DNA of 64,000 nucleotides from Candidatus Bathyarchaeota archaeon (GTDB taxonomy: Archaea; Thermoproteota; Bathyarchaeia; Bathyarchaeales; DTEX01), in NCBI GenBank assembly GCA_018396995.1, contig JAGTQB010000002.1, positions 1,503-65,502 of the forward strand, read 5' to 3'. Positions 34,138 to 45,894 of the stretch are shown here, in pieces. The translations under genes were made by a program, and so were the position numbers. Under the pieces are notes generated by a model. It ran no database searches. It was not told where the DNA came from and saw only the letters and a program-made list of their open reading frames with translations. How positions within the stretch are numbered: position 1 is the stretch's first letter; every line of letters begins with the position of its first letter.

Positions 34138-34925
34138 GCATATTTGAGGGCTTAAGGTTTAAAACTATTTCGTCACCAATACATAGAATTGATCCCAGAG
34201 CCAAGTTCATCTATGTGTGCGTTTTATTCGCCATTGCAGTATTATTCAGCCAGCTGATTCCGCTCCTAATATTATTCTTCTCCCAGATGCCACTAATCAT
34301 AATAGCTAAGCTAAAGAGGGAGTGGCTGCGCTTAATGAGGGGGTCAATGTTCTTTGCCGCGATAATCTTTATTGCCAACATGGTTTCACTATACTTTTAC
34401 GGTGGCACCCAATCCTTAGCAGCAGTTGTAGAGCATTCCCTAGCAATGACCACGAGATTTCTAATTCTAGTAGAATCCTTCTCAATATTCTTCGCAACCA
34501 CATCCCCAGATATGCTCAGCCTATCTCTTGAGCAAATAGGCGTACCCTACGAATTCTGCTTCGCATTCACAACAGCTATCAGGTTTGTCCCAGTTCTGGC
34601 GGAGGAGGCGCAGACAATAATGGACGCACAGAAGGCCCGCGGGTTGGAGCTTGAGCGTGGGAACTTTATAAAGAGGGTAAAAAACTATATACCAATTCTG
34701 ATACCGCTGATTGTTAGCGCCATAAGAAGAAGTATGGAACTTGCGGAGGCCATGGAGTCAAGAGCATGGGGCGCATCAAAGAAGCGGACAAGCTTGTACT
34801 CATTAAAGATGAAGACTAAGGACTATATTTTCATCGTAGCTTCAATTATAGTTCTCCTAGTCTCCATATATGTGCGTTTCTTTATTAGCATACCGAGTGT
34901 AACAGAGCTAATGCATCTCGGCTAA
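34134..34925 (+). CDS. ecfT: ECF transporter transmembrane component T
   Basis: IHRIDPRAK, AIRFVPVL...I.DAQKARG, LAEAMESRA. Confidence 0.93.
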   Translation: MSIFEGLRFKTISSPIHRIDPRAKFIYVCVLFAIAVLFSQLIPLLILFFSQMPLIIIAKLKREWLRLMRGSMFFAAIIFIANMVSLYFYGGTQSLAAVVEHSLAMTTRFLILVESFSIFFATTSPDMLSLSLEQIGVPYEFCFAFTTAIRFVPVLAEEAQTIMDAQKARGLELERGNFIKRVKNYIPILIPLIVSAIRRSMELAEAMESRAWGASKKRTSLYSLKMKTKDYIFIVASIIVLLVSIYVRFFISIPSVTELMHLG

Positions 34926-35416
34926 GCTCTTTTCACATAACACTTGCCTATCGCATTTACGAGTGCTCCAGCATACCTCTTAACAGCATCCCTAACCTCC
35001 GGGCTCATCTTCTCCCCTAAGCCGAGGTTTCTCGGCTCTACGCCTAACAAAATAACCTTTGCATTAGTCTCCTTCTGTATTAATGATGTTAGCAAACTAA
35101 GCGGCATCGCATGCGTAGATATAGTTTCGTCTGGTATCTGCTCCGGGGGTATGAGCCTAGCTTCACCCGGCTCCTTGCCGAAGAGCGCTGCATCGATTAT
35201 AAGGACATGAGATGGCTTAAACCTCTTTATTTTGCCAATGAAATTCTCGGGAGCCGACCCGCCATATACCACCCTAACGTTTCTTGGAACCTTACCCTTT
35301 ATCTCCTTCACGATCTCCAGCCCTAGGGAATCATCTCCTCTAAGGGGGTTGCCAACACCAATTATGACAAGTCTTCTGTAACCGCTTAGCCAAGTCTTAA
35401 GCTCGTCTTCAACCAT
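34922..35416 (-). CDS. hycI: Hydrogenase maturation endopeptidase, HycI type
   Basis: IGVGNPLRGDD, G.APEN, IIDAA, STH..PL. Divergent from the hydrogenase genes. Confidence 0.92.
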   Translation of the reverse strand: MVEDELKTWLSGYRRLVIIGVGNPLRGDDSLGLEIVKEIKGKVPRNVRVVYGGSAPENFIGKIKRFKPSHVLIIDAALFGKEPGEARLIPPEQIPDETISTHAMPLSLLTSLIQKETNAKVILLGVEPRNLGLGEKMSPEVRDAVKRYAGALVNAIGKCYVKRA

Positions 35417-35537: not shown

Positions 35538-36008
35538 ATGAAGAGTAATACAGCTGAGCAAAAGGTTCTCCTATACGACCCTACAAGGTGCACTGGATGT
35601 CTCTTCTGCCAAATTGCTTGTTCCTACCAGCACTTCAAAGAAATCGGTTTAGAGAAAACCAACCTTCGAATAATATTTGATGAGAAGACAGGCGAGTTTG
35701 AGGCAATTTACTGCCAGCATTGTGATGAACCTCTTTGCGTCGCTGCATGCCCAAATGAGGCTGCCGTAAAAGATGAAGTGACAGGCTTAGTGAGGATAAA
35801 TCCAATTAGGTGTATTGGCTGCAAAACATGTACTGTTGCCTGTCCCCTCTCAGCTCCATGGTTTAATGCTGAGCGGCGCATCTCCATGAAATGCGACTTC
35901 TGTGATGGAGATCCTAAATGCGCAAAATTCTGTTCACCCCAAGCTATCAGGGTTGCGTTGAGAAAGGAGGCGTGGGAGTTTAATAAAAACCGTTATTCAG
36001 GGGTGTAA
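35538..36008 (+). CDS. 4x[4Fe-4S] ferredoxin-like electron transfer subunit (HycB/CooF/DmsB-like)
   Basis: CTGCLFCQIAC, CQHCDEPLCVAACP, CIGCKTCTVACP, KCDFC.GDP.CAKFC. Confidence 0.9.
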   Translation: MKSNTAEQKVLLYDPTRCTGCLFCQIACSYQHFKEIGLEKTNLRIIFDEKTGEFEAIYCQHCDEPLCVAACPNEAAVKDEVTGLVRINPIRCIGCKTCTVACPLSAPWFNAERRISMKCDFCDGDPKCAKFCSPQAIRVALRKEAWEFNKNRYSGV

Positions 36009-36011
36009 TAT

Positions 36012-36695
36012 ATGGTTGTGCAACTCGAATCCGAGATAATAAATTACTTGAGGGAGATTTTAGGAGACGACCTAATAAAGGTTTATAGGCAGCGGGAGAG
36101 GAGAATATTCGCTATCATTAAGCCAGCAGTCCTTAGGAGAACAATTGAAGCCTTAAAGAGCAAGTATAGCGACATGCGCTTCATGACTCTCTCCGCGGTT
36201 GATAATGGCTTAGATATGGAATACCTATACCACTTCAACATCAACGGCATAGTCCTAACAATAAGAGTTTTAAGGCCGAAGGAGGAGCCTATACTTGAAT
36301 CCATAGCCGATATCATCCCAGCAGCAAACTTCATTGAGAGGGAAATATCAGACTTATTTGGAGTGAAATTAGTGAATCATCCGGAGCTCGATCCATCTGG
36401 CTTAATATTGACTAAGGACTGGCCCGAAGATCAGAGACCTTTAAGGAGACCCTTTGAGGGAGTCCTGCCATTAAAGGCTAGGCCTGTTGCCGAAGCATTA
36501 ATAGCGAGCGGTTGCGTGGCTCCTATATCAACCTTTGTCCAAAAGAAGCGTGAAGAAAGTGGCCTACAAAAATCTCCCCCCTTCCCCTTCACCAATGAAA
36601 AGATTTTGGGCGAGTATCATGGTATCATTAAGGCCTCCGGTATTGGTGATAGGGTTGGTTTTGACTGGGAGAAGAGGAGACTCCGGTATAAGTAG
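36012..36695 (+). CDS. NuoC/EchD-like hydrogenase subunit with a C-terminal HdrC-tail-like extension
   Basis: LSAVD...YLYHF, SIADIIPAANFIEREISDLFGV....HP, DWP....PLR (NuoC core), then about 75 extra residues. Confidence 0.85.
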   Translation: MVVQLESEIINYLREILGDDLIKVYRQRERRIFAIIKPAVLRRTIEALKSKYSDMRFMTLSAVDNGLDMEYLYHFNINGIVLTIRVLRPKEEPILESIADIIPAANFIEREISDLFGVKLVNHPELDPSGLILTKDWPEDQRPLRRPFEGVLPLKARPVAEALIASGCVAPISTFVQKKREESGLQKSPPFPFTNEKILGEYHGIIKASGIGDRVGFDWEKRRLRYK

Positions 36696-37583
36696 TTGAG
36701 GGTGATGGATATGGTTAAGTATGCCTTCTTCCTAGGTTGCCAGATCCCGATGCGGCTGCCAAATATTGAGGTGGCTACGAGAAAGGTTTTTGAGAAACTT
36801 AATGTAGAGGCTGTTGACCTACTTGGTTATTCATGTTGCCCCGAGCCAGTTGTATCCCGCCTAGTGGATGAGGAGACTGCATTGGTTATATCCGCAAGGA
36901 ATTTAACCTTAGCTGAAGAAATGGGGTTAGACATGATAACTCTATGTAATGGATGCTATGAAACTCTAGCCGAGGCAAACGAGGTTCTGAAACATGATGC
37001 CGAGAAAAGGAGCAAAGTTAATGAAATCTTGAGGAAATATGACAGGGAATATGAGGGTAAAATTGATGTTAAACATGTTATCGAGGTTCTTTACGAGGAC
37101 ATAGGTTTAAAGAAGATTAAGAGCCTAGTTGTTAAGCCCCAGAAAATGCGCGTTGCATTGCATTACGGTTGCCACCTATACCGCGAATATAAGAGTGCTG
37201 ACATAATGCGTAAGCCGAGGATGATGCGGGAGATGGTTGAGCAGACAGGTGTTCAGGTAGTGGATTATGGTCTTGAGAGGATGTGTTGTGGTTACCCAAG
37301 TATGCAGGCGAGCGAAGAATTCTCGCTTAAGGAGAGACTAGCTCGTAAACTAAGCAAGGTTGTTAGTGCTGGAGCGGATGCCGTGGTCACCGCTTGCCCA
37401 GCCTGCATGATACAGTTTGAGCTTGGCCAAGTAATGTTGAGGGCGCACGGGGTCCAATTTAATGTGCCATGCATAAACCTAATGGAGCTATTAGCCTTGT
37501 CATTTGGTGTTCCATCCAAAGAGTTACTCCTAGAGTTTCATAGGAGCCCTGTTTTACAGTTAATTAGAAGGTTGGAGGGATAA
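36696..37583 (+). CDS. hdrB: Heterodisulfide reductase subunit B (copy 1)
   Basis: Two complete CCG domains: LGC..SCCPEP..LCNGC and HYGCH..MCCG..ACPAC. Confidence 0.92.
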   Translation: MRVMDMVKYAFFLGCQIPMRLPNIEVATRKVFEKLNVEAVDLLGYSCCPEPVVSRLVDEETALVISARNLTLAEEMGLDMITLCNGCYETLAEANEVLKHDAEKRSKVNEILRKYDREYEGKIDVKHVIEVLYEDIGLKKIKSLVVKPQKMRVALHYGCHLYREYKSADIMRKPRMMREMVEQTGVQVVDYGLERMCCGYPSMQASEEFSLKERLARKLSKVVSAGADAVVTACPACMIQFELGQVMLRAHGVQFNVPCINLMELLALSFGVPSKELLLEFHRSPVLQLIRRLEG

Positions 37584-37588
37584 GTAAA

Positions 37589-38716
37589 ATGCCGGAGAAA
37601 GTTTATATTGGGCCTTACAGACCACAGCTGGTTGAGCCTGAACGTTTTGAGCTCCTTGTTGAGGGAGACAGGATAATTGATGCTAAGATGGAGCTCGGTT
37701 ACATGCATAGGGGCATAGAGAAATTATTTACCACGAGAACATATATGCAGAACTTAGCTTTGGCTGAAAGGATATGCGGGATATGCAGCGGAGTACATAC
37801 CCTATGTTATGCGCAGACGGTTGAAAGATTGATGGGCGTAGATGTCCCAGAGAGGGCGAGGTACCTAAGATGCATATATATGGAGCTTGAGCGCCTACAC
37901 AGCCATTATCTATGGTTCGGAATACTGGCCCATAGCCTACATGAGCATGAAATCTTCGCAAAAATAATGGGTGAGAGGGAGATAATTCAAGACTTATTCG
38001 AATACTTAACAGGAAACAGGATTAACTATGCGATAAACACCATTGGCGGTGTGCGTAGGGATATAACGCCGGAGAAGGCTGAGAAGATACGTAAAGTCTT
38101 AAAGACGCTTAGGTCCCTCTCAGACTACATAATGTCGCTACTAGACGATAATGGGGTCCTCACGAAGAAGACTAAAGGTGTAGGCGTGCTACCAAGGGAT
38201 AAAGCCATAGAGGTCGGTGCGGTAGGCCCAGTTTTAAGAGCCTCCGGAGTTACTAGCGACGTAAGAAAAGATGATCCATATGCAGCATATGATAAACTTA
38301 ACTTCGAAGTCATTGTTGAGAAGGATGGAGACCTCCGCGCCAAATCTCTTGTTAGGGCTAGAGAGACGTATGAGAGCATGAAAATTATTGAGCAAGCCTT
38401 AGATAATCTCCCATCGGGTGATATAGCCGCAAAGCCTGGAGAGCCTAAGGTTGGCGAGGAGATAGGCAGGACAGAAGCTCCGAGGGGCGAGCTAATATAT
38501 TACATTAAGTCTAATGGCACAAATATTCCAGAGAGAGTTAAGGTTCGCACCCCCTCATACGCCAATAACTTCGCCATCCTTGCAATGCTCCGCGGCGAGT
38601 ACCTTAAAAACGCTAGGGCAGTGATAGAGAGCATTGATCCATGCTTCGCATGCACGGACCGTGTGGTGGTTGTTGATGCTAGGACTGGTGTAAGGAGGAT
38701 TATGAATTTAAAGTAG
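37589..38716 (+). CDS. [NiFe]-hydrogenase large subunit, group 4 type
   Basis: GYMHRGIEK, L1 ERICGICS..H, ELERLHSH, EAPRGE, L2 SIDPCFACTDR followed by a 17-residue cleavable tail. Confidence 0.95.
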   Translation: MPEKVYIGPYRPQLVEPERFELLVEGDRIIDAKMELGYMHRGIEKLFTTRTYMQNLALAERICGICSGVHTLCYAQTVERLMGVDVPERARYLRCIYMELERLHSHYLWFGILAHSLHEHEIFAKIMGEREIIQDLFEYLTGNRINYAINTIGGVRRDITPEKAEKIRKVLKTLRSLSDYIMSLLDDNGVLTKKTKGVGVLPRDKAIEVGAVGPVLRASGVTSDVRKDDPYAAYDKLNFEVIVEKDGDLRAKSLVRARETYESMKIIEQALDNLPSGDIAAKPGEPKVGEEIGRTEAPRGELIYYIKSNGTNIPERVKVRTPSYANNFAILAMLRGEYLKNARAVIESIDPCFACTDRVVVVDARTGVRRIMNLK

Positions 38717-38732
38717 TTGGGGGTGAAGTTTA

Positions 38733-39641
38733 ATGGATAAGATTTCTGTTTATCGTTTCTTATCTGCTGGCTGTAATGCGTGCGATGTGGAGGTTCTTGA
38801 GTGCCTTGCCCCGCGTTATGGTCTTGCTAGCCTTGGCGTTGAGGTTGTTGAGGAGCCTGAGAAAGCAAATGTTCTAATTTTGACTGGTGCTGGAACAGTT
38901 AAGGGTAGGGAGGCGCTTCTAGAGGTATACGAAAAGATAAATCCACCGAAGATAGTTATTGCTGTTGGAAACTGCTCGATAACAAAGAACATCTTCGATA
39001 AGGGTTATCCAATAATTGGCCCCCTAAATAAGCTTATTCCAGTCAACTATTATATTCCCGGGTGCCCGCCTAGACCGCAGGCGATAATTAAGGCTGTAGC
39101 CGATATACTTGGCGTGAAGATTGAGGAGAGGGAGGAGTGGTGGCAAACTCCAGAGGGCTTTCGTGGTAGGCACGAAATAGATAGAGAGAAATGTATTGGA
39201 TGTGGGGCATGCGCCCAAATATGTACTGCCGACGCAATAGAAGTTATTGACGGCCCAGAGAAGAGGATAATCAAGGTCAATTATGTGCATTGTACTTTCT
39301 GCGCCTTCTGCCAAGATGAGTGCCCCACAAAGGCGCTGAAACTCACAGGAGCATATCATTTATTGACAAATGATCTCCAAAAGGCTAGGGTTGAGAACGA
39401 GGTTAACCTACTTACCTGCGCTATATGCGGGGGGACATTCTTCCCGGAGAAGCAGATAGATTGGGCGCTAAAGCGTATTGTCGAGGAGAAGGCTCCAATA
39501 TACAGAGACTTCAGCAGCGAAATTTTAGATGCCGTTAAAATATGCACTAATTGTAGAAGAAGTGTGGAGAGTATTAAGAAGGCGAAAAGACTTCTAACTA
39601 AGCTCTCGGAAAAAGCTAGGGCTACAGTGCTCCGGAAATAG
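38733..39641 (+). CDS. Fused hydrogenase small subunit (NuoB/HycG-like) and 2x[4Fe-4S] NuoI/HycF-like subunit
   Basis: GCNACDVE, AVGNC, IPGCPPRP, then PEGFRG, CIGCGACAQIC, CTFCAFCQDECP, plus extra CAIC and CTNC pairs. Confidence 0.9.
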   Translation: MDKISVYRFLSAGCNACDVEVLECLAPRYGLASLGVEVVEEPEKANVLILTGAGTVKGREALLEVYEKINPPKIVIAVGNCSITKNIFDKGYPIIGPLNKLIPVNYYIPGCPPRPQAIIKAVADILGVKIEEREEWWQTPEGFRGRHEIDREKCIGCGACAQICTADAIEVIDGPEKRIIKVNYVHCTFCAFCQDECPTKALKLTGAYHLLTNDLQKARVENEVNLLTCAICGGTFFPEKQIDWALKRIVEEKAPIYRDFSSEILDAVKICTNCRRSVESIKKAKRLLTKLSEKARATVLRK

Positions 39642-39715
39642 ACATATTTTTATCTTACCCCTTCCTTTCTATCTCTTTAAAAGAGGATGAGGTCTCCTGT
39701 TAAGGAGGATTAAGG

Positions 39716-40261
39716 TTGGCTGAGGAGAGCATATCCATCTCTTCCAAAATAGATCCGAAGTTTAGGTATGAAGTTATTAGGATGCCTGGTGGAGAAAAGC
39801 TTCTGCAATGCTTTCAGTGTGGGACATGTACATCTGATTGCCCAGTTGCAAGGTTTAGTGATAAATATAGGCCGAGAAAGATTATTAGGATGGCTCAGCT
39901 CGGCCTGAGGGAGAAGGTTTTAAGCAGTGACTTCCTATGGCTATGTGCCTCATGCTTCACGTGTACTGATAGATGCCCACAAGGGGTTGAGGTTGCAAGT
40001 GTAATAAGGGTTCTAAAGAACATGGCTGCTGCCGAGGGGCGGATACCAGAAGTATTTAAGGTTCTTCTAAGCAATCTAATTAAAACTGGCTACATATATG
40101 AGATTCCAGAGTCGAGGATTAAGAAGCGCGAGTCTCTAGGTCTACCACCCCTACCAAAGGTTAACATTGAAGGCTTAAATAAATCGCTGCAGGGCATGAG
40201 TATTGAGAGTTTCCTTAAAGGGGTTTCTGAGAAAGGTAGGGAGGCTAAGTTGTGGGTATGA
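39716..40261 (+). CDS. hdrC: Heterodisulfide reductase subunit C
   Basis: CFQCGTCTSDCP, PRKIIRM..LG, WLCASCFTCTDRCPQGV. Confidence 0.95.
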   Translation: MAEESISISSKIDPKFRYEVIRMPGGEKLLQCFQCGTCTSDCPVARFSDKYRPRKIIRMAQLGLREKVLSSDFLWLCASCFTCTDRCPQGVEVASVIRVLKNMAAAEGRIPEVFKVLLSNLIKTGYIYEIPESRIKKRESLGLPPLPKVNIEGLNKSLQGMSIESFLKGVSEKGREAKLWV

Positions 40262-41130
40262 GCCAGAAATACCTGTTTTATTTGGGGTGCGCCATACCTT
40301 ACAGGGTCTCGTCATATGAGGTTTCTGCTAGAAAAGTTTTGGAGAAGTTAGGTGTGGAGTTAGTCGAGATGCCGGAGTTTAATTGCTGTGGTCTCCCACT
40401 TGAACCATTAAGCCATGAGCTAATGTTAATCTTATCTGCGAGGAACCTTGCTGTAGCGGAGCAAACGGGATTAAACATTTTAACTCTCTGTCCAGGATGC
40501 TTCAGTACGCTAAGGAAGACTGGTAAGACGCTTAAGGAGAATAAAGCTCTTAAAGAAGAGATTAATAGGCATCTAAAGGAATCCGGCTTAGAATTTAAGG
40601 GAGGCATTGAGGTTAAGCATATCTCCCAAGTCTTAGTTGAAGACATTGGTCTCGATAAAATTAAAAAGGCAATTGTTAAGCCATTGAGAAATCTTAAGCT
40701 CGCAGGACATAGCGGATGCCACCTCTCAAGACCGAAGAAGTATATTGGGTTTGAGGATCCCGAGAACCCAAGAGTTCTGAAGATGCTTATTAGCGTAACT
40801 GGAGCGAAGCCAGTAGAGTATTTAGGCGAGACGGAGTGTTGCGGCTCAACGATAGCCGCCCTAGATGACAAGGTTTCGCTGTCATTAGTTAGAGAGAAGC
40901 TCCTCCATGTCAAGGAAGCTGGCGCCGATGCGCTGATAACAATTTGCCCAGCTTGTCACATGATGTATGAGGCTAATCAGATACGAGCTGAGAAAATGTT
41001 TGGTGAGAAATACGGTATTCCGGTGCTGCATTATACGCAGCTCCTCGGCCTGGCAATGGGTATGCAACCGGGGGAGCTAGGATTCGATGAGCTACGGGTT
41101 AAGCCCACAAAAATCCTAGAGAAGATTTAA
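40252..41130 (+). CDS. hdrB: Heterodisulfide reductase subunit B (copy 2)
   Basis: LGC..NCCG..LCPGC and HSGCHLSRP..ECCG..ICPAC, PVLHYTQLLGLAMG. Confidence 0.93.
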   Translation: MGMSQKYLFYLGCAIPYRVSSYEVSARKVLEKLGVELVEMPEFNCCGLPLEPLSHELMLILSARNLAVAEQTGLNILTLCPGCFSTLRKTGKTLKENKALKEEINRHLKESGLEFKGGIEVKHISQVLVEDIGLDKIKKAIVKPLRNLKLAGHSGCHLSRPKKYIGFEDPENPRVLKMLISVTGAKPVEYLGETECCGSTIAALDDKVSLSLVREKLLHVKEAGADALITICPACHMMYEANQIRAEKMFGEKYGIPVLHYTQLLGLAMGMQPGELGFDELRVKPTKILEKI

Positions 41131-41195: not shown

Positions 41196-43478
41196 ATGCG
41201 TTTAAAGATAATTGTTTCTGGCATTGTTCAGGGGGTTGGTTTCCGCCCCTTCATATATAGAACTGCTGTTAAGAACCGCTTGAAGGGTTATGTTAGGAAT
41301 AGAGGGGACTCGTGTGTAGAAATAGTTGTTGATGGCGGGGACGAAGATATAAAAAGATTTCTAAGAGATCTTATTGAGAAGAAACCTCCGTTAGCCAGGA
41401 TTTATGAGGTTATAACTACGCCCATTGAATCCACTGGGGAAAATTACGAGGACTTTAAAATATATAGGAGTTCTGATGAAGCGGAGTTATCTGGCTCGGT
41501 TATACCCCCAGACATAGCTATATGCGACGAGTGTCTTATGGAGATGCGTGATCCATCAAACCCAAGATACGATTACTTCTTCATAACATGCGTAAACTGT
41601 GGGCCTAGATATACGATCATAGAAGATGTCCCATATGATAGGGAGAACACCACGATGCGGGACTTCCAAATGTGCGGCTTCTGTAAGTCGGAGTACATGG
41701 ATCCCATAAACAGGAGGTTCCACGCGCAAACCGTCGCATGTCCGAGGTGTGGCCCAAGGGCATATTTACTGGATGCTAATGGTGGCATTGTTGAGTGTAG
41801 GGATCCAATTAGGGAAGCTGGTAGGCTCATTTCTGAGGGGTGTATTATTGCGGTTAAAGGTTATGGAGGCTTCCATATAGCTGCCTCAACCCTTCTCGAT
41901 GAGCCGCTTAAGAGATTAAGGGCTGCAAAGCATAGGAGGCAGAAACCATTCGCTATAATGGCTAGGAGCTTAGAGGCTGTGAAGAGCTTTGCTAAGGTAA
42001 GCTCCTGGGAGGAGAAGGTATTAACATCCTATGAGCGCCCAATAGTTTTGTTAGAGAAAGGCGAAAACTACTATTTATCTGAGCTTATTTCTCCGGGCCT
42101 ACATAATGTTGGTGTAATGTTACCCTATACTGGATTACATTACATGCTGTTTGACTGGGTTAAAGATCCGGCTTTTGTCATGACCAGCGCCAACCCGCCA
42201 AACCAGCCGATAATTAAAGATGATGATGAAGCCCTAAGGAAGTTACGCGGCCTAGTAGACTATTTTCTAATGCATAATAGGCGTATAGCCCATAGGTGTG
42301 ACGACTCGGTTTTACGCTTGCATGGATATAAGCCAGTCTTTATAAGGAGGTCGAGGGGTTATGCACCGGAGCCGATTAGGCTGAGACTTAAGGCTAGGAG
42401 CTCCGCACTCGGGCTTGGGGGCGAAAAGAATAATACTGCGTGTCTCGTGGTTGGCGATAAAGCCTTCCTCTCGCAGCATATAGGTGACGTTGAGAACCTT
42501 GAGACTCTAGTGTTCCTTGAGTCCGCATCCAAGAGACTTATGCGCTTAACGAATAGTAATGTTGATGTGGTTGCATGCGACCTACACCCAAAGTTCGCCA
42601 CCACAATGCTGGCTAGTAGACTCTCTGAGGAGTATGGCTGCAGGGTTCTTCAGGTTCAGCATCACTACGCCCATACAGCCGCCTTGTTAGCTGAACATGG
42701 GCTAAATGAGATTATAGCCATATGCTGTGATGGCTATGGATACGGTTTGGATGGAGGTGCGTGGGGCGGAGAAATAATATTCGGCTCGCTCAATCCGCTG
42801 GAGTTTAAGCGACTGGGCCATCTAGAGGAGCAGCCACTGCTTGGAGGGGATATGGCAACAAGATACCCTATTAGGGTTGCAGCTGGCATACTATATAAGC
42901 GCGTGGATATAGAAGAATGGCTTATGGAGAACAGTATTAATTTGCCCCATGGGCTTAGAGAGGCGCAGCTCATACTCTCAAAGCTTAAGAGGGGTGACGT
43001 TAGAATTAAGACAACCAGCTGTGGTAGAGTTCTGGATGCAGCCTCGGCAATTCTGGGAGTATGTTATGAAAGAACATATGAGGGTGAGCCTGCAATGAAG
43101 CTCGAGTCGGCGGCAATAAACGGTAGAAATGTTATTGAGCTTGAACCGCAAATCAGGGGGACAACATTAGAGACAACTAACATAATAGTCTCGCTATTCG
43201 AGGGAAGAAAGGTTTACTCTAGGAGGGATTTAGCCTACTCTATTCACTATTATTTGGCTAGGGGATTGGCTAAGCTGGCCGTTGATCTAGCGATAGAGTA
43301 TGGTGTTAAGAGCATCGGCTTTACTGGGGGCGTCGCATGCAATCAAATAATTACTGACATTATGCGCAGTTTCATTGAGGAGAGCGGACTAAATTTTTTC
43401 GTTCACGAAGCCGTGCCACCCGGCGATGGTGGTTTATCATTTGGCCAAGCAATCGCGGCTGCTTTCTCTCAAGATTAA
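41196..43478 (+). CDS. hypF: Hydrogenase maturation carbamoyltransferase
   Basis: GIVQGVGFRPF acylphosphatase domain, Zn fingers, RRFHAQ..ACP.CGP, DLHP, QHHYAH, PPGDGGLSFGQ. Confidence 0.97.
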   Translation: MRLKIIVSGIVQGVGFRPFIYRTAVKNRLKGYVRNRGDSCVEIVVDGGDEDIKRFLRDLIEKKPPLARIYEVITTPIESTGENYEDFKIYRSSDEAELSGSVIPPDIAICDECLMEMRDPSNPRYDYFFITCVNCGPRYTIIEDVPYDRENTTMRDFQMCGFCKSEYMDPINRRFHAQTVACPRCGPRAYLLDANGGIVECRDPIREAGRLISEGCIIAVKGYGGFHIAASTLLDEPLKRLRAAKHRRQKPFAIMARSLEAVKSFAKVSSWEEKVLTSYERPIVLLEKGENYYLSELISPGLHNVGVMLPYTGLHYMLFDWVKDPAFVMTSANPPNQPIIKDDDEALRKLRGLVDYFLMHNRRIAHRCDDSVLRLHGYKPVFIRRSRGYAPEPIRLRLKARSSALGLGGEKNNTACLVVGDKAFLSQHIGDVENLETLVFLESASKRLMRLTNSNVDVVACDLHPKFATTMLASRLSEEYGCRVLQVQHHYAHTAALLAEHGLNEIIAICCDGYGYGLDGGAWGGEIIFGSLNPLEFKRLGHLEEQPLLGGDMATRYPIRVAAGILYKRVDIEEWLMENSINLPHGLREAQLILSKLKRGDVRIKTTSCGRVLDAASAILGVCYERTYEGEPAMKLESAAINGRNVIELEPQIRGTTLETTNIIVSLFEGRKVYSRRDLAYSIHYYLARGLAKLAVDLAIEYGVKSIGFTGGVACNQIITDIMRSFIEESGLNFFVHEAVPPGDGGLSFGQAIAAAFSQD

Positions 43479-43489
43479 ATTACTTTTCC

Positions 43490-44452
43490 CTATAAGCCTA
43501 GAATTTCCTCCTTAATGGCCCTATGGGTCTCCGAGATGGGTGCAACTGTATTCACGACATATATGTCCAGGAGATTGAAGAGGTTCATGAAGAACCTCCT
43601 TCTCAAATTCGTTTTCCGTTCATCTCTAACTAATAGATGTGGATTGCAAAAGTCGGAGTTCTCAACACATTTAAGGGCTTCGCTTGGTGATAGCCTGCTA
43701 AAGATTGTCTTATCCTCAGGATCACGCTTCAAAATTATGGCCTTTTTAAGGGTCGTCATCGGAATAATCTTTCCCCTCCCAACGATCCACCTAACATTTA
43801 CTATGGCTCTACCCATAGAATCAAACTCGGCTTTATCAACCAGCCTCTTATACTCTCCCCAAATCTCTGCTACATCTGCCTGGATATAAAAGTTCTTTTC
43901 TGACGCAAATGCAAGAGCTTCTCCCCCCATTAAGCGCACAAAGAACCAGTCGTCTGAGACAGCGCGCACCCCTTTAAGTCTTAAAAGCCCATAGGTATGC
44001 GTTGTTTTCCCCGTACCTGGTGGCGCCATTAGGCAGACCCCCTGCCCATCTATATCTATACATGCACCATGAACGGAGTTTATTCCATGCTCATCCTCCA
44101 GTATATCGCTCGCAACGCTAAGGGCTATCGATTTGACCCAACCATAGTAGTCCACGTTTATTAAGAAGGCTGTTTTAGAAAGCGGATCGTATAGAACCTG
44201 CATCCTCCCATCCGTCTCACTTGTAACTACTAGTCTACCATGGGAGCGAATGCTCGCTGACATGGGATAAAAGCTTTCCTCCCATCTCTCCTTCACATGC
44301 CTTTCATCAGTGAGGAGCTTAATACAGCAACCATAAATGTCAGCCTTAACTTCATAGAGAAACCGGCCACTATACTTCTCCATTAATTTATCCTTCTCCT
44401 CAATCGAAATTAATTTAACCTCATACTTCACAAGAATCCCCAAAATACACAT
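43490..44452 (-). CDS. HPr kinase/PEP carboxykinase-like P-loop protein of unknown function
   Basis: VHGACIDI.G.G..L.APPGTGKTT followed by VSDDW. Confidence 0.7.
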   Translation of the reverse strand: MCILGILVKYEVKLISIEEKDKLMEKYSGRFLYEVKADIYGCCIKLLTDERHVKERWEESFYPMSASIRSHGRLVVTSETDGRMQVLYDPLSKTAFLINVDYYGWVKSIALSVASDILEDEHGINSVHGACIDIDGQGVCLMAPPGTGKTTHTYGLLRLKGVRAVSDDWFFVRLMGGEALAFASEKNFYIQADVAEIWGEYKRLVDKAEFDSMGRAIVNVRWIVGRGKIIPMTTLKKAIILKRDPEDKTIFSRLSPSEALKCVENSDFCNPHLLVRDERKTNLRRRFFMNLFNLLDIYVVNTVAPISETHRAIKEEILGL

Positions 44453-44563: not shown

Positions 44564-44797
44564 ATGTGCTTGGCTGTTCCAGCCAAGGTTATCGAGATAA
44601 ATGGTGATTTGGCTAAAGTTGATTTTGGCGGCGGGGTAATTAGGGAGGCAAACATATCGCTTGTAGATGCCAAAGTTGGCGATTATGTCCTCATCCACGC
44701 AGGCTATGCAATACAAGTCTTAGACGAGGAAGAGGCTAAAGAGACCCTGAGACTATGGATGGAGATTCTAAAAGCTGAGGAAGGGATGAGAGAATAA
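44564..44797 (+). CDS. hypC: Hydrogenase assembly chaperone
   Basis: MCLAVPAKV, GDYVLIHAGYAI. Confidence 0.97.
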   Translation: MCLAVPAKVIEINGDLAKVDFGGGVIREANISLVDAKVGDYVLIHAGYAIQVLDEEEAKETLRLWMEILKAEEGMRE

Positions 44798-45894
44798 TGC
44801 TCCTTAAAGATTTTAGGGATCCATGGCTCGCTAAAAGGATAGTTGAAAAGATACATGAGATTTCTCCTAAAAAAGACGTGGTAAAAATTTGTCATGTATG
44901 TGGGACTCATGAATGGACGATATCACATTACGGCATAAGAAGTCTATTGCCAAGTAACGTTGATGTTATTGCTGGCCCAGGCTGCCCGGTATGCATTGTC
45001 CCAGCTTCAGAAGTGGATGAGGCCATTGAGCTAGCGTTAAAGGGGGCAACTCTCATATGTTTTGGTGATGCAGCTAGGGTTCCGGGCTCACAGCTGTCTC
45101 TTATAGAGGCTAAAGCCAAGGGTGCTGATATCCAAATAGTTTATAGTGTTATGGATGCCGTGAAGGTGGCTGAGAAGGAGCCGAATAGAGAATTCGTCTT
45201 CTTTGCAATAGGCTTTGAGACGACGGCCCCCTTAACCGCTTATGAAGTGCTCAAAAAGCCTCCTAGAAACCTTAGTTTCCTAATATCTCATAGGCTTATT
45301 CCACCAGCCATGGAGCTCATGCTAGGTATAGGTGACTTGCAAATAGATGCCTTTATAGCCCCGGGTCACGTCAGCACAATTATAGGGTTAGAGCCATACG
45401 AGGTATTCCCGAAGGTTTATCGGATGCCGACAATCGTAGCTGGTTTCGAGCCGATAGATGTCCTCCTTGCAATATACATGGCCTTAAAACAGATTAAGAA
45501 CCGCATAGCAATTCTAGAAAACGAGTATAAGCGGGCGGTAAAATGGGATGGCAATGTTAAGGCAAAGGAGCTTATAAAAAAGGCCTTTAAAGTCGTTAGC
45601 GGAAATTGGCGTGGTCTAGGCAGAATACCAGACTCAACATTGGCACTTAGGGAGGAATATTTGGAGTATGACGCCCATGAAAAGCATGGTGTTAGAATTG
45701 AGAGGGGGATGGATATCCCCCCGGGGTGCCAATGCCACCTGGTTATAATAGGGAAGATAAAGCCAATAGAGTGCCCACTATTTATGAAGGCATGTACCCC
45801 CCAGAAACCAGTAGGGTCGTGCATGGTTGGAATAGAGGGAACATGTAGAATATGGGCTTCAGCCCGGCAAGAATTGAAGCCAAAGTTTATCTAA
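44797..45894 (+). CDS. hypD: Hydrogenase formation protein
   Basis: HVCGTHE, GPGCPVC, GFETTAP, PGHVSTIIG, C-terminal Cys cluster with CMV..EGTC. Confidence 0.97.
   Translation: MLLKDFRDPWLAKRIVEKIHEISPKKDVVKICHVCGTHEWTISHYGIRSLLPSNVDVIAGPGCPVCIVPASEVDEAIELALKGATLICFGDAARVPGSQLSLIEAKAKGADIQIVYSVMDAVKVAEKEPNREFVFFAIGFETTAPLTAYEVLKKPPRNLSFLISHRLIPPAMELMLGIGDLQIDAFIAPGHVSTIIGLEPYEVFPKVYRMPTIVAGFEPIDVLLAIYMALKQIKNRIAILENEYKRAVKWDGNVKAKELIKKAFKVVSGNWRGLGRIPDSTLALREEYLEYDAHEKHGVRIERGMDIPPGCQCHLVIIGKIKPIECPLFMKACTPQKPVGSCMVGIEGTCRIWASARQELKPKFI

Follow-up and report, generated by a model that had tools for sequence, protein, structure and literature searches.

A 64-kb stretch of DNA from a hot-spring archaeon, Candidatus Bathyarchaeota (referred to below as the window, at its full length), encodes a protein of 227 residues in which a NuoC core continues, beyond its PLRK end motif, as a tail homologous to the C-terminal arm of HdrC, without the ferredoxin domain of HdrC. 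The protein is quite likely to be a NuoC/HdrC-arm chimera that clamps the product of the adjacent gene, HdrB copy 1 (HdrB1), to a group-4 [NiFe] hydrogenase whose gene cluster contains no membrane genes, as judged from sequence comparison and structural modelling. The arm is homologous to HdrC and conserved, its genes lie strictly adjacent to those of a single HdrB clade, and no membrane subunits are encoded in the cluster. A model of the complex, together with synteny, suggests that the arm binds HdrB1 physically. In the proposed arrangement the arm would wrap around the adjacent HdrB1 and so anchor a disulfide reductase with noncubane clusters on the hydrogenase module. The parts of the chimera and its proposed partner are as follows.

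36012..36437 (+), NuoC (30-kDa subunit) core, residues 1-142; PF00329, with PDB matches to Nqo5, MbhK and HycE
36438..36458 (+), PLRR(PFE), the conserved NuoC end motif at the core/arm junction; aligns with PLRKDY of T. thermophilus Nqo5
36459..36695 (+), HdrC-type C-terminal arm, residues 150-227 and stop codon, the proposed HdrB1 clamp; PDB HdrC matches
36696..37583 (+), HdrB1, with two CCG domains; PF02754 in two stretches, TIGR03288 289 bits

Sequence anatomy of the NuoC-arm protein

The open reading frame (ORF) 36012..36695 on the forward strand encodes 227 residues, of which Pfam recognized only residues 36-149, as the NuoC domain PF00329 (Complex1_30kDa) with an E-value of 1.1e-18 and a score of 68.4 bits against a cut-off of 22.5. 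This was the sole PF00329 match in the genome. Approximately 78 residues (36459-36692) follow the sequence DWPEDQRPLR, in agreement with a preliminary description of this DNA that had counted about 75 extra residues after the normal end of NuoC. The ORF contains no ferredoxin CxxCxxCxxxC(P) motif and no Fer4 Pfam match, and it is not matched at E <= 0.001 by TIGR03290, the NCBIfam model for HdrC; the protein is therefore not itself an HdrC. Since the ferredoxin cysteine motif is missing, only the non-Fe-S arm was joined to NuoC, as the preliminary description had proposed. When eight arm sequences were scanned against Pfam, seven gave no match of any kind, and a match of the remaining one to DUF5132 (E 0.2) was taken as chance.

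In an AlphaFold2 (AF2) model of the single chain the NuoC core (residues 1-120) was predicted with a predicted local distance difference test score (pLDDT) of 83-96, while the pLDDT of the arm was 43-63 and the arm was not confidently folded. Such low values for the arm by itself are as expected for a segment that would fold on a partner. The gene had been described as abutting hdrB1 with no gap, which is correct for the mechanical TTG start at 36696 but not for the more likely start at ATG 36711 (or 36705), which is indicated by the HdrB consensus beginning MxKYA. Within this start region (window positions 36696-36713) the latter starts leave a spacer of 9-15 nt between the nuoC stop codon and hdrB1, with a Shine-Dalgarno-like word (GAGGGTGA).

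Homology of the arm to HdrC

The 82-residue tail alone was compared with the sequences of the PDB, which revealed a match to residues 120-183 of the HdrC of M. thermolithotrophicus (5odc_C) with an E-value of 4e-5, and to two Methanothermobacter HdrCs with E-values of 4.8e-4 (8rvu_c) and 6.4e-4 (8rvv_C). All three alignments were ungapped and ran to the end of the chain, GFDWEK included, consistent with the likeness of the distal part to methanogen HdrC C-termini that had been noted in the preliminary description. A profile of 33 full-length homologues matched 5odc_C at 1.9e-6. The profile check that had been suggested was made with a module profile built from 26 sequences (alignment A2, 13 fused and 13 free arms); it matched five of five distinct PDB HdrCs, at 3.6e-16, 4.6e-16, 1.1e-13, 1.1e-10 and 2.1e-7, with the next match beyond the HdrCs only at E 0.97. 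The five HdrCs are those found by the HdrC encoded in the window, and in all five the arm (residues ~150-227) aligns without gaps to the C-terminal arm of HdrC at residues ~107-184. One stand-alone form of the arm matches positions 81-142 of TIGR03290 with an E-value of 4.1e-7.

Comparison of the tail with the local HdrC reproduced the 11 identities in 27 ungapped positions noted earlier. The Smith-Waterman score of this pair was 53, compared to 27.3 +/- 4.7 for shuffled tails, and one of 2000 shuffles reached 53. Because of the matches of both the tail alone and the profiles to PDB HdrCs, the tail is a homologue of the HdrC C-terminal arm.

Conservation of the arm

The arm is carried by at least 120 homologues, those listed being 181-255 residues in length, mostly 221-228, and every named source among the homologues listed is Bathyarchaeia/Bathyarchaeota or Thermoproteota. 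In the alignment of 33 sequences, which extends down to 48% identity, the arm accounts for 10 of the 34 invariant columns (C168, S173, R180, E181, G184, L185, E201, G216, L224 and R225), and P143 and L144 of the PLRR junction are also invariant. The mean majority fraction was 0.78 for the arm compared to 0.72 for the core, and for 26 of 32 homologues similarity was higher in the arm than in the core. These values place the conservation of the arm at or above that of the NuoC core. Its most conserved stretch is GFDWEKRRLRYK (36657-36692, residues 216-227, with GFDWEKxRLRY at 216-226), which it has in common with methanogen HdrC.

A contig of a strain variant, assembled from RNA-library run X12, shows 51 differences over an ungapped span of 36063-39906; RNA-library run X16 yielded nothing here, and DNA run X13 small pieces only. 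Ten of the 11 listed differences that lie inside the ORF are synonymous, the list covering 40 of 67 variant differences; contigs from RNA libraries are no proof of transcription or of a single transcript.

Distribution of fused and free forms

Related loci were collected from a contig search, which gave six close relatives, and from a wider search of 401 Thermoproteota genomes with the arm alone. The latter gave matches in 41 genomes, comprising 43 rows, of which 14 fell in frames of 218-265 residues, 25 in frames of 91-176 residues, three were partial matches in HdrC-sized frames and one contained stop codons. Thirty loci were inspected, and these comprised 12 NuoC+arm fusions and 18 free small proteins (ORFs of 83-160 residues). 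In 29 of the 30 loci the gene immediately downstream of the arm encodes an HdrB, the exception being at a contig edge, and in 26 the gene immediately upstream encodes a Fer4_11-type ferredoxin.

The free arm proteins (L018-L024 and L026-L036, for example L018:1429-1716 and L031:1498-1857) are encoded between the Fer4_11 and HdrB genes of membrane-bound hydrogenase clusters. They have no Pfam family match, and one of them (P0121) is annotated as 'hypothetical protein' in a metagenome-assembled genome (MAG) of Methanomethylicota. The conserved part of all 13 free proteins in alignment A2 opens with [YHF]-P-[LW]-[RK]-[KR], the PLRK motif of the NuoC end. NuoC itself is fused to NuoD in the free-form lineages and is without the PLRK motif in seven of seven frames read. 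Six of these frames are complete and encode fusions of 545-587 residues, and the remaining one, L038, is cut by the contig end at 350 residues. A NuoH-like gene is present in seven of eight extended free-form loci, four of which also have an antiporter-like gene, and L038, the remaining locus, runs out at the edge of its contig. By gene content, these free-form clusters with membrane genes are of the published Ehd/Ehe type. Membrane subunits are also present in one fusion lineage (L044). NuoB and NuoI are encoded individually, and in another order, in several of the stand-alone-form loci.

When 1.84 billion representatives were scanned with the module profile, 169 matches were obtained at E <= 1e-3. 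Classification of the best 150 of these revealed 18 NuoC+arm clusters and 25 free-form clusters (at 50% identity), 40 true HdrCs, 54 short pieces resembling C-terminal HdrC fragments and one arm+HdrB fragment; the remaining 12 were long repetitive proteins with many short matching stretches and were taken as spurious. A divergent fusion family contains a NuoC+arm protein (P0316) labelled as from an NC10 bacterium MAG, in whose sequence the arm is present. Two further frames could be natural fusions or frame errors: P0291 (297 residues) joins the end of Fer4_11, NuoC and the arm, and P0261, a fragment of 142 residues, joins the distal half of the arm to the N-terminus of HdrB.

The preliminary description had seen the tail as grafted onto NuoC. 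The fusion was observed, but the distribution of homologous sequences identifies it as a module found across the family, which other lineages have in a stand-alone form, and not as a local graft. It is conceivable, and we put it forward tentatively, that the HdrC arm with its PLRK motif is a portable HdrB-docking adaptor, a tether with a hydrogenase end and an HdrB end that would be the subunit, so far unnoticed, by which all HdrB-associated group-4 hydrogenases are defined. The fusion with NuoC would then be ancestral, and the 'hypothetical protein' of ~92-127 residues in Ehd-type clusters would be a fission product that remained when NuoC became fused to NuoD. The Bathyarchaeia version would on the same proposal be a membrane-free H2:disulfide oxidoreductase that is non-bifurcating and has two HdrB sites, in an archaeon that is not a methanogen.

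The proposed HdrB partner

Both HdrB copies of the window contain two CCG domains (PF02754 in two stretches each), and the alignment of 25 HdrB sequences (A3) has 10 invariant cysteines, the number expected for two noncubane [4Fe-4S] clusters. Both copies score 289 bits with TIGR03288, below its cut-off of 345, and are therefore not equivalogs of the methanogen enzyme. In a maximum-likelihood tree of 34 HdrBs all 25 of the arm-adjacent proteins fall on one side of a branch with support of 100/99, and the opposite side holds seven HdrC-adjacent HdrBs, including HdrB copy 2 (HdrB2), and two other HdrBs of the window genome. The HdrBs of the free-form loci form one branch (98/94) that is nested among the HdrBs of the fusion form, so that the NuoC-arm fusion may be ancestral to the stand-alone form.

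The complex of the arm with HdrB1 was modelled using an alignment of 25 rows for HdrB1 and 26 rows for the arm. The model scored 0.73 (runs of 0.75, 0.71 and 0.73) compared to 0.01 for the best of three controls (0.00-0.01), giving a positive outcome for HdrB1 in the multimer test that the preliminary description had called for. The mark passed by this model is reached by 58 of 80 solved complexes and by two of 110 mismatched pairs, a rough calibration in which own alignments were used. The runs have at least 86% of contacts in common, with 103-123 contacts and a partner pLDDT of at least 71. Contacts are predicted between the invariant arm residues R180 and L185 and residues P22 and E25 of HdrB1, which are likewise invariant, at an expected error of 1.3-1.5 Å. 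Together with the gene order, the model supports the tether to HdrB1 that had been proposed for the tail.

Gene cluster and proposed electron path

The genes for Fer4_11, NuoC+arm, HdrB1, the NuoD-like subunit, NuoB-NuoI, HdrC and HdrB2 form a compact cluster on the same strand, with HycI upstream on the opposite strand. The remaining features of this region are as follows.

34922..35416 (-), HycI-type hydrogenase maturation protease; PF01750, E 1.4e-22
35538..36008 (+), four-cluster ferredoxin Fer4_11 (HycB/HydN/DmsB type); PF13247, E 3.7e-14, with NCBIfam matches of DmsB/HybA/HydN type
37589..38716 (+), group-4 [NiFe] hydrogenase large subunit, NuoD-like; PF00346, E 3.2e-69, and PF00374, E 4.4e-16
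38733..39641 (+), NuoB-like small subunit fused to a NuoI/HycF-like 2x[4Fe-4S] domain; PF01058 and Fer4_21, with NuoB and HycF-type NCBIfam matches
39716..40261 (+), canonical HdrC with ferredoxin domain and its own arm; PDB HdrC matches, E 6e-33 over residues 3-149, and TIGR03290, E 2.2e-35
40252..41130 (+), HdrB2; PF02754 in two stretches
41196..43478 (+), HypF-like maturation protein, a candidate name from the preliminary description and from position; listed ORF
44797..45894 (downstream), HypD; PF01924, E 1.1e-137

The assignment to the group-4 [NiFe] hydrogenases is based on the NuoD-like large subunit, the NuoB-like small subunit and the maturation protease (PF00346, PF00374, PF01058 and PF01750). 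The large subunit contains the motifs RICGICSGVH and DPCFACTDR, which hold the N- and C-terminal CxxC nickel-iron ligands, and the sequence of Fer4_11 contains 16 cysteines in four CxxC..C...C groups. NuoB and NuoI form a single chain in the window, and fusion is also possible in L043 and L045, where the two matches abut. No HdrA is encoded in the cluster.

Electrons from H2 oxidized at the NuoD-like [NiFe] site would pass to the NuoB cluster, through the fused NuoI-like clusters to Fer4_11 and on to HdrB1 and a disulfide; both the route through Fer4_11 and the direction of flow are conjectural, as is the substrate. With its four clusters Fer4_11, encoded upstream of the chimera, would stand in for the Fe-S domain of HdrC, a replacement that is probable by analogy with HycB in formate hydrogenlyase. 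The canonical pair of HdrC and HdrB2 would form a second site, which fits the presence of two hdrB genes for one hdrC that had been noted earlier: hdrC overlaps hdrB2 by 10 nt and nuoC-arm lies directly before hdrB1.

Membrane genes and genomic setting

Neither the 64-kb window nor the related loci L001-L006, L043 and L045 yielded a homologue of NuoH or of an antiporter. The cluster proteins contain no transmembrane-like segment, with a maximum 19-residue Kyte-Doolittle value of at most 1.50 compared to 2.68 for a control, the T component of an energy-coupling factor (ECF) transporter. As there are neither membrane genes nor transmembrane segments in the cluster, it seems to encode a soluble complex. 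The only NuoH and antiporter of the genome lie on contig C23, beside a second NuoB/NuoD set.

This second group-4 hydrogenase (L037, C23:1-4874) consists of NuoB (140 residues), a NuoD-like subunit (414 residues) and NuoH (316 residues). The locus also encodes a 2x[4Fe-4S] protein of 115 residues and a protein of 173 residues without a Pfam match, and at the edge of the contig there is a convergent gene of antiporter-like type.

The genome is 1.46 Mb in size and 98.5% complete, and across it one NuoC, nine CCG-domain proteins and seven FlpD/MvhD matches were found. No McrA match was found in this 98.5%-complete genome, and the substrate of the complex would presumably be other than CoM-S-S-CoB (the disulfide of coenzymes M and B) from methanogenesis.

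Alternative explanations

The NuoC-arm chimera as a clamp for HdrB1 was weighed against three alternatives and against several observations that count against it. According to a figure legend of a 2026 cryo-electron microscopy study (PMC13518236), HdrC residues 79-98 lie in the proton path and the coenzyme M site at the HdrB-HdrC interface. These residues precede the region matched by the arm (from ~107) and have no counterpart in the NuoC-arm protein, and the active site of HdrB1 may for this reason be incomplete or completed differently. Composition-adjusted BLASTP gave no alignment between the NuoC-arm protein and the local HdrC, and TIGR03290 gave no match to the NuoC-arm protein of the window at E <= 0.001. 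The HdrB tree is rooted at its midpoint only, the feature that is counted in it also served to define its groups, and the 30 inspected loci were found by searching for the arm itself. Since complexes of HdrB and HdrC have already been solved, the success of the model may be a memory of these structures, and it shows likeness rather than binding by this particular copy. The model covers HdrB1 alone, leaving gene order and the tree as the basis for its specificity, and GFDWEKxRLRY (216-226) lies outside the confident contacts. Contact between Fer4_11 and HdrB1 is postulated by analogy, and the parallel with HdrC invokes an arm that reportedly embraces HdrB in the crystal structure.

The alternative that survives best, although it is unlikely, is that the arm binds HdrB2 or either HdrB, with the local HdrC and its divergent distal arm serving HdrB1 or both. 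The last ~32 residues of the local HdrC (residues 150-181, 40165-40261) do not align to the solved HdrCs and have no GFDWE-type end, unlike the NuoC arm. The glutamate that is paired with the invariant arginine of the arm in the model is kept by both copies, as E25 in HdrB1 and within SYEVSARK in HdrB2, and the complex was modelled for HdrB1 only. The gene order nevertheless couples hdrC to hdrB2 through their overlap and nuoC-arm to hdrB1, and the arm-adjacent HdrBs form a clade of their own. Furthermore, five of the eight extended stand-alone loci (L040, L041, L042, L046 and L047) contain the arm and an HdrB1-type gene but no HdrC-HdrB2 pair within the stretch covered.

A slightly poorer prospect is that the extension braces the hydrogenase module structurally, in the manner of the C-terminal extensions found on the 30-kDa subunit of complex I, and that HdrB is a mere neighbour or a loose redox partner. 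The position of the conserved GFDWEKxRLRY outside the modelled HdrB1 interface implies that part of the arm may touch another subunit, and the retention of the NuoC PLRK motif in the stand-alone form suggests that one end is on the hydrogenase. A brace would account poorly for the homology of the arm to a region of HdrC (E down to 3.6e-16), for the adjacent HdrB in 29 of 30 inspected loci, or for the 103-123 contacts with HdrB1 in a model whose controls scored 0.00-0.01. Chance resemblance, or a decaying and functionless remnant of a past gene fusion, would agree with the empty BLASTP comparison of the two window proteins and the lack of a Pfam family for the tail but is scarcely credible given the profile E-values to PDB HdrCs, an arm at least as conserved as the core in 33 sequences down to 48% identity, the 18 NuoC+arm and 25 free-form clusters (50% identity) among the best 150 of 169 matches, and strain-variant differences that are mostly synonymous.

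Comparison with known systems

The proposed clamp of HdrB1 was compared with the HdrC of the methanogen complexes HdrABC-MvhAGD and Hdr-Vhu-Fwd (5ODC, 8RVU, 8RVV, 9SFI and 7BKB), which has the motifs G-H/C..P, R..GL, PPT and GFDWE in common with the arm. The contact modelled here uses an invariant arginine of the arm and an invariant glutamate of HdrB. One obvious difference is that the arm is carried on a NuoC core, without the ferredoxin domain or the [4Fe-4S] cysteines of HdrC, and that HdrA is absent from the cluster in the window. Our literature search found no open text on the contact between the HdrC arm and HdrB in the crystal structure.

Group-4 [NiFe] hydrogenases described as 'HdrB-interacting' have been predicted from genomes, comprising Ehd of Methanomethylicia, Ehe of Culexarchaeia, Drh and Ehg, and an 'Ehd-like' group that includes Bathyarchaeia has already been named (Kohtz et al. 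2022, PMC9723716). The cluster in the window resembles Ehd, Ehe and the Ehd-like group in having a group-4 large subunit co-located with HdrB, a comparison of gene content only. The stand-alone arm protein was found in clusters of the Ehd/Ehe kind, one of them labelled Methanomethylicota. Ehd, Ehe, the Ehd-like group and Ehg are described as membrane-bound with an antiporter subunit (PMC9723716), whereas the cluster in the window has neither NuoH nor an antiporter. Ehg was expressed in a culture (2025, PMC12700198), and a survey of Bathyarchaeia placed an hdrB2 inside an fpo operon (PMC8407382).

For Drh, the 'disulfide-reducing hydrogenase' of Methanocellales, direct reduction of a disulfide with H2 has been proposed (Lyu and Lu 2015, as cited in PMC6046458 and PMC9723716). 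Like Drh, the system described here combines a group-4-type hydrogenase with HdrB and has no antiporter subunit. Unlike the archaeon of the window, the host of Drh is a methanogen, and Drh is described as 'putative membrane-associated' (PMC6046458). Family matches also relate the cluster to formate hydrogenlyase-1 (FHL-1; 7Z0S, HycB-HycF-HycG-HycE), with a HycB-type ferredoxin, a NuoI-like domain, and NuoB-like and NuoC/D-like subunits. In contrast to FHL-1 the distal enzyme would be HdrB and not FdhF, and membrane subunits are absent from the cluster in the window; the equation of Fer4_11 with HycB is an analogy.

Neither of the words HdrC and NuoC appears in the main text of PMC9723716, and the portions of PMC9723716, PMC12700198 and PMC8407382 considered here make no mention of HdrB attachment, NuoC or a truncated HdrC. 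No description of an adaptor formed by fusion of the HdrC arm and NuoC was found in the literature search, a point on which supplementary gene tables may bear. Complexes of this class are already known, and what appears to be undescribed is the adaptor by which one would be held together. In the portions of the sources considered, the link between HdrB and group-4 hydrogenases such as Ehd, Ehe, Drh and Ehg has so far been drawn from gene neighbourhood alone. The arm, whether as part of NuoC or as a small protein that lacks annotation, offers a concrete and falsifiable physical link between HdrB and the hydrogenase without HdrC or HdrA, and probably shows how such hydrogenases hold an HdrB. It would provide a clean case of a subunit-binding peptide that has parted from the cofactor domain and found a second use on a different scaffold, and it points to H2-linked disulfide metabolism in non-methanogenic Bathyarchaeia. 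The A2 profile could serve as a sequence marker for such hydrogenases in metagenomes, including a MAG labelled bacterial.

Between the HypF-like ORF and hypD, a protein of 320 residues is encoded on the reverse strand (43490-44452), with a weak match to the C-terminal P-loop domain of HPr kinase (E 3.4e-6) that lies below the cut-off.

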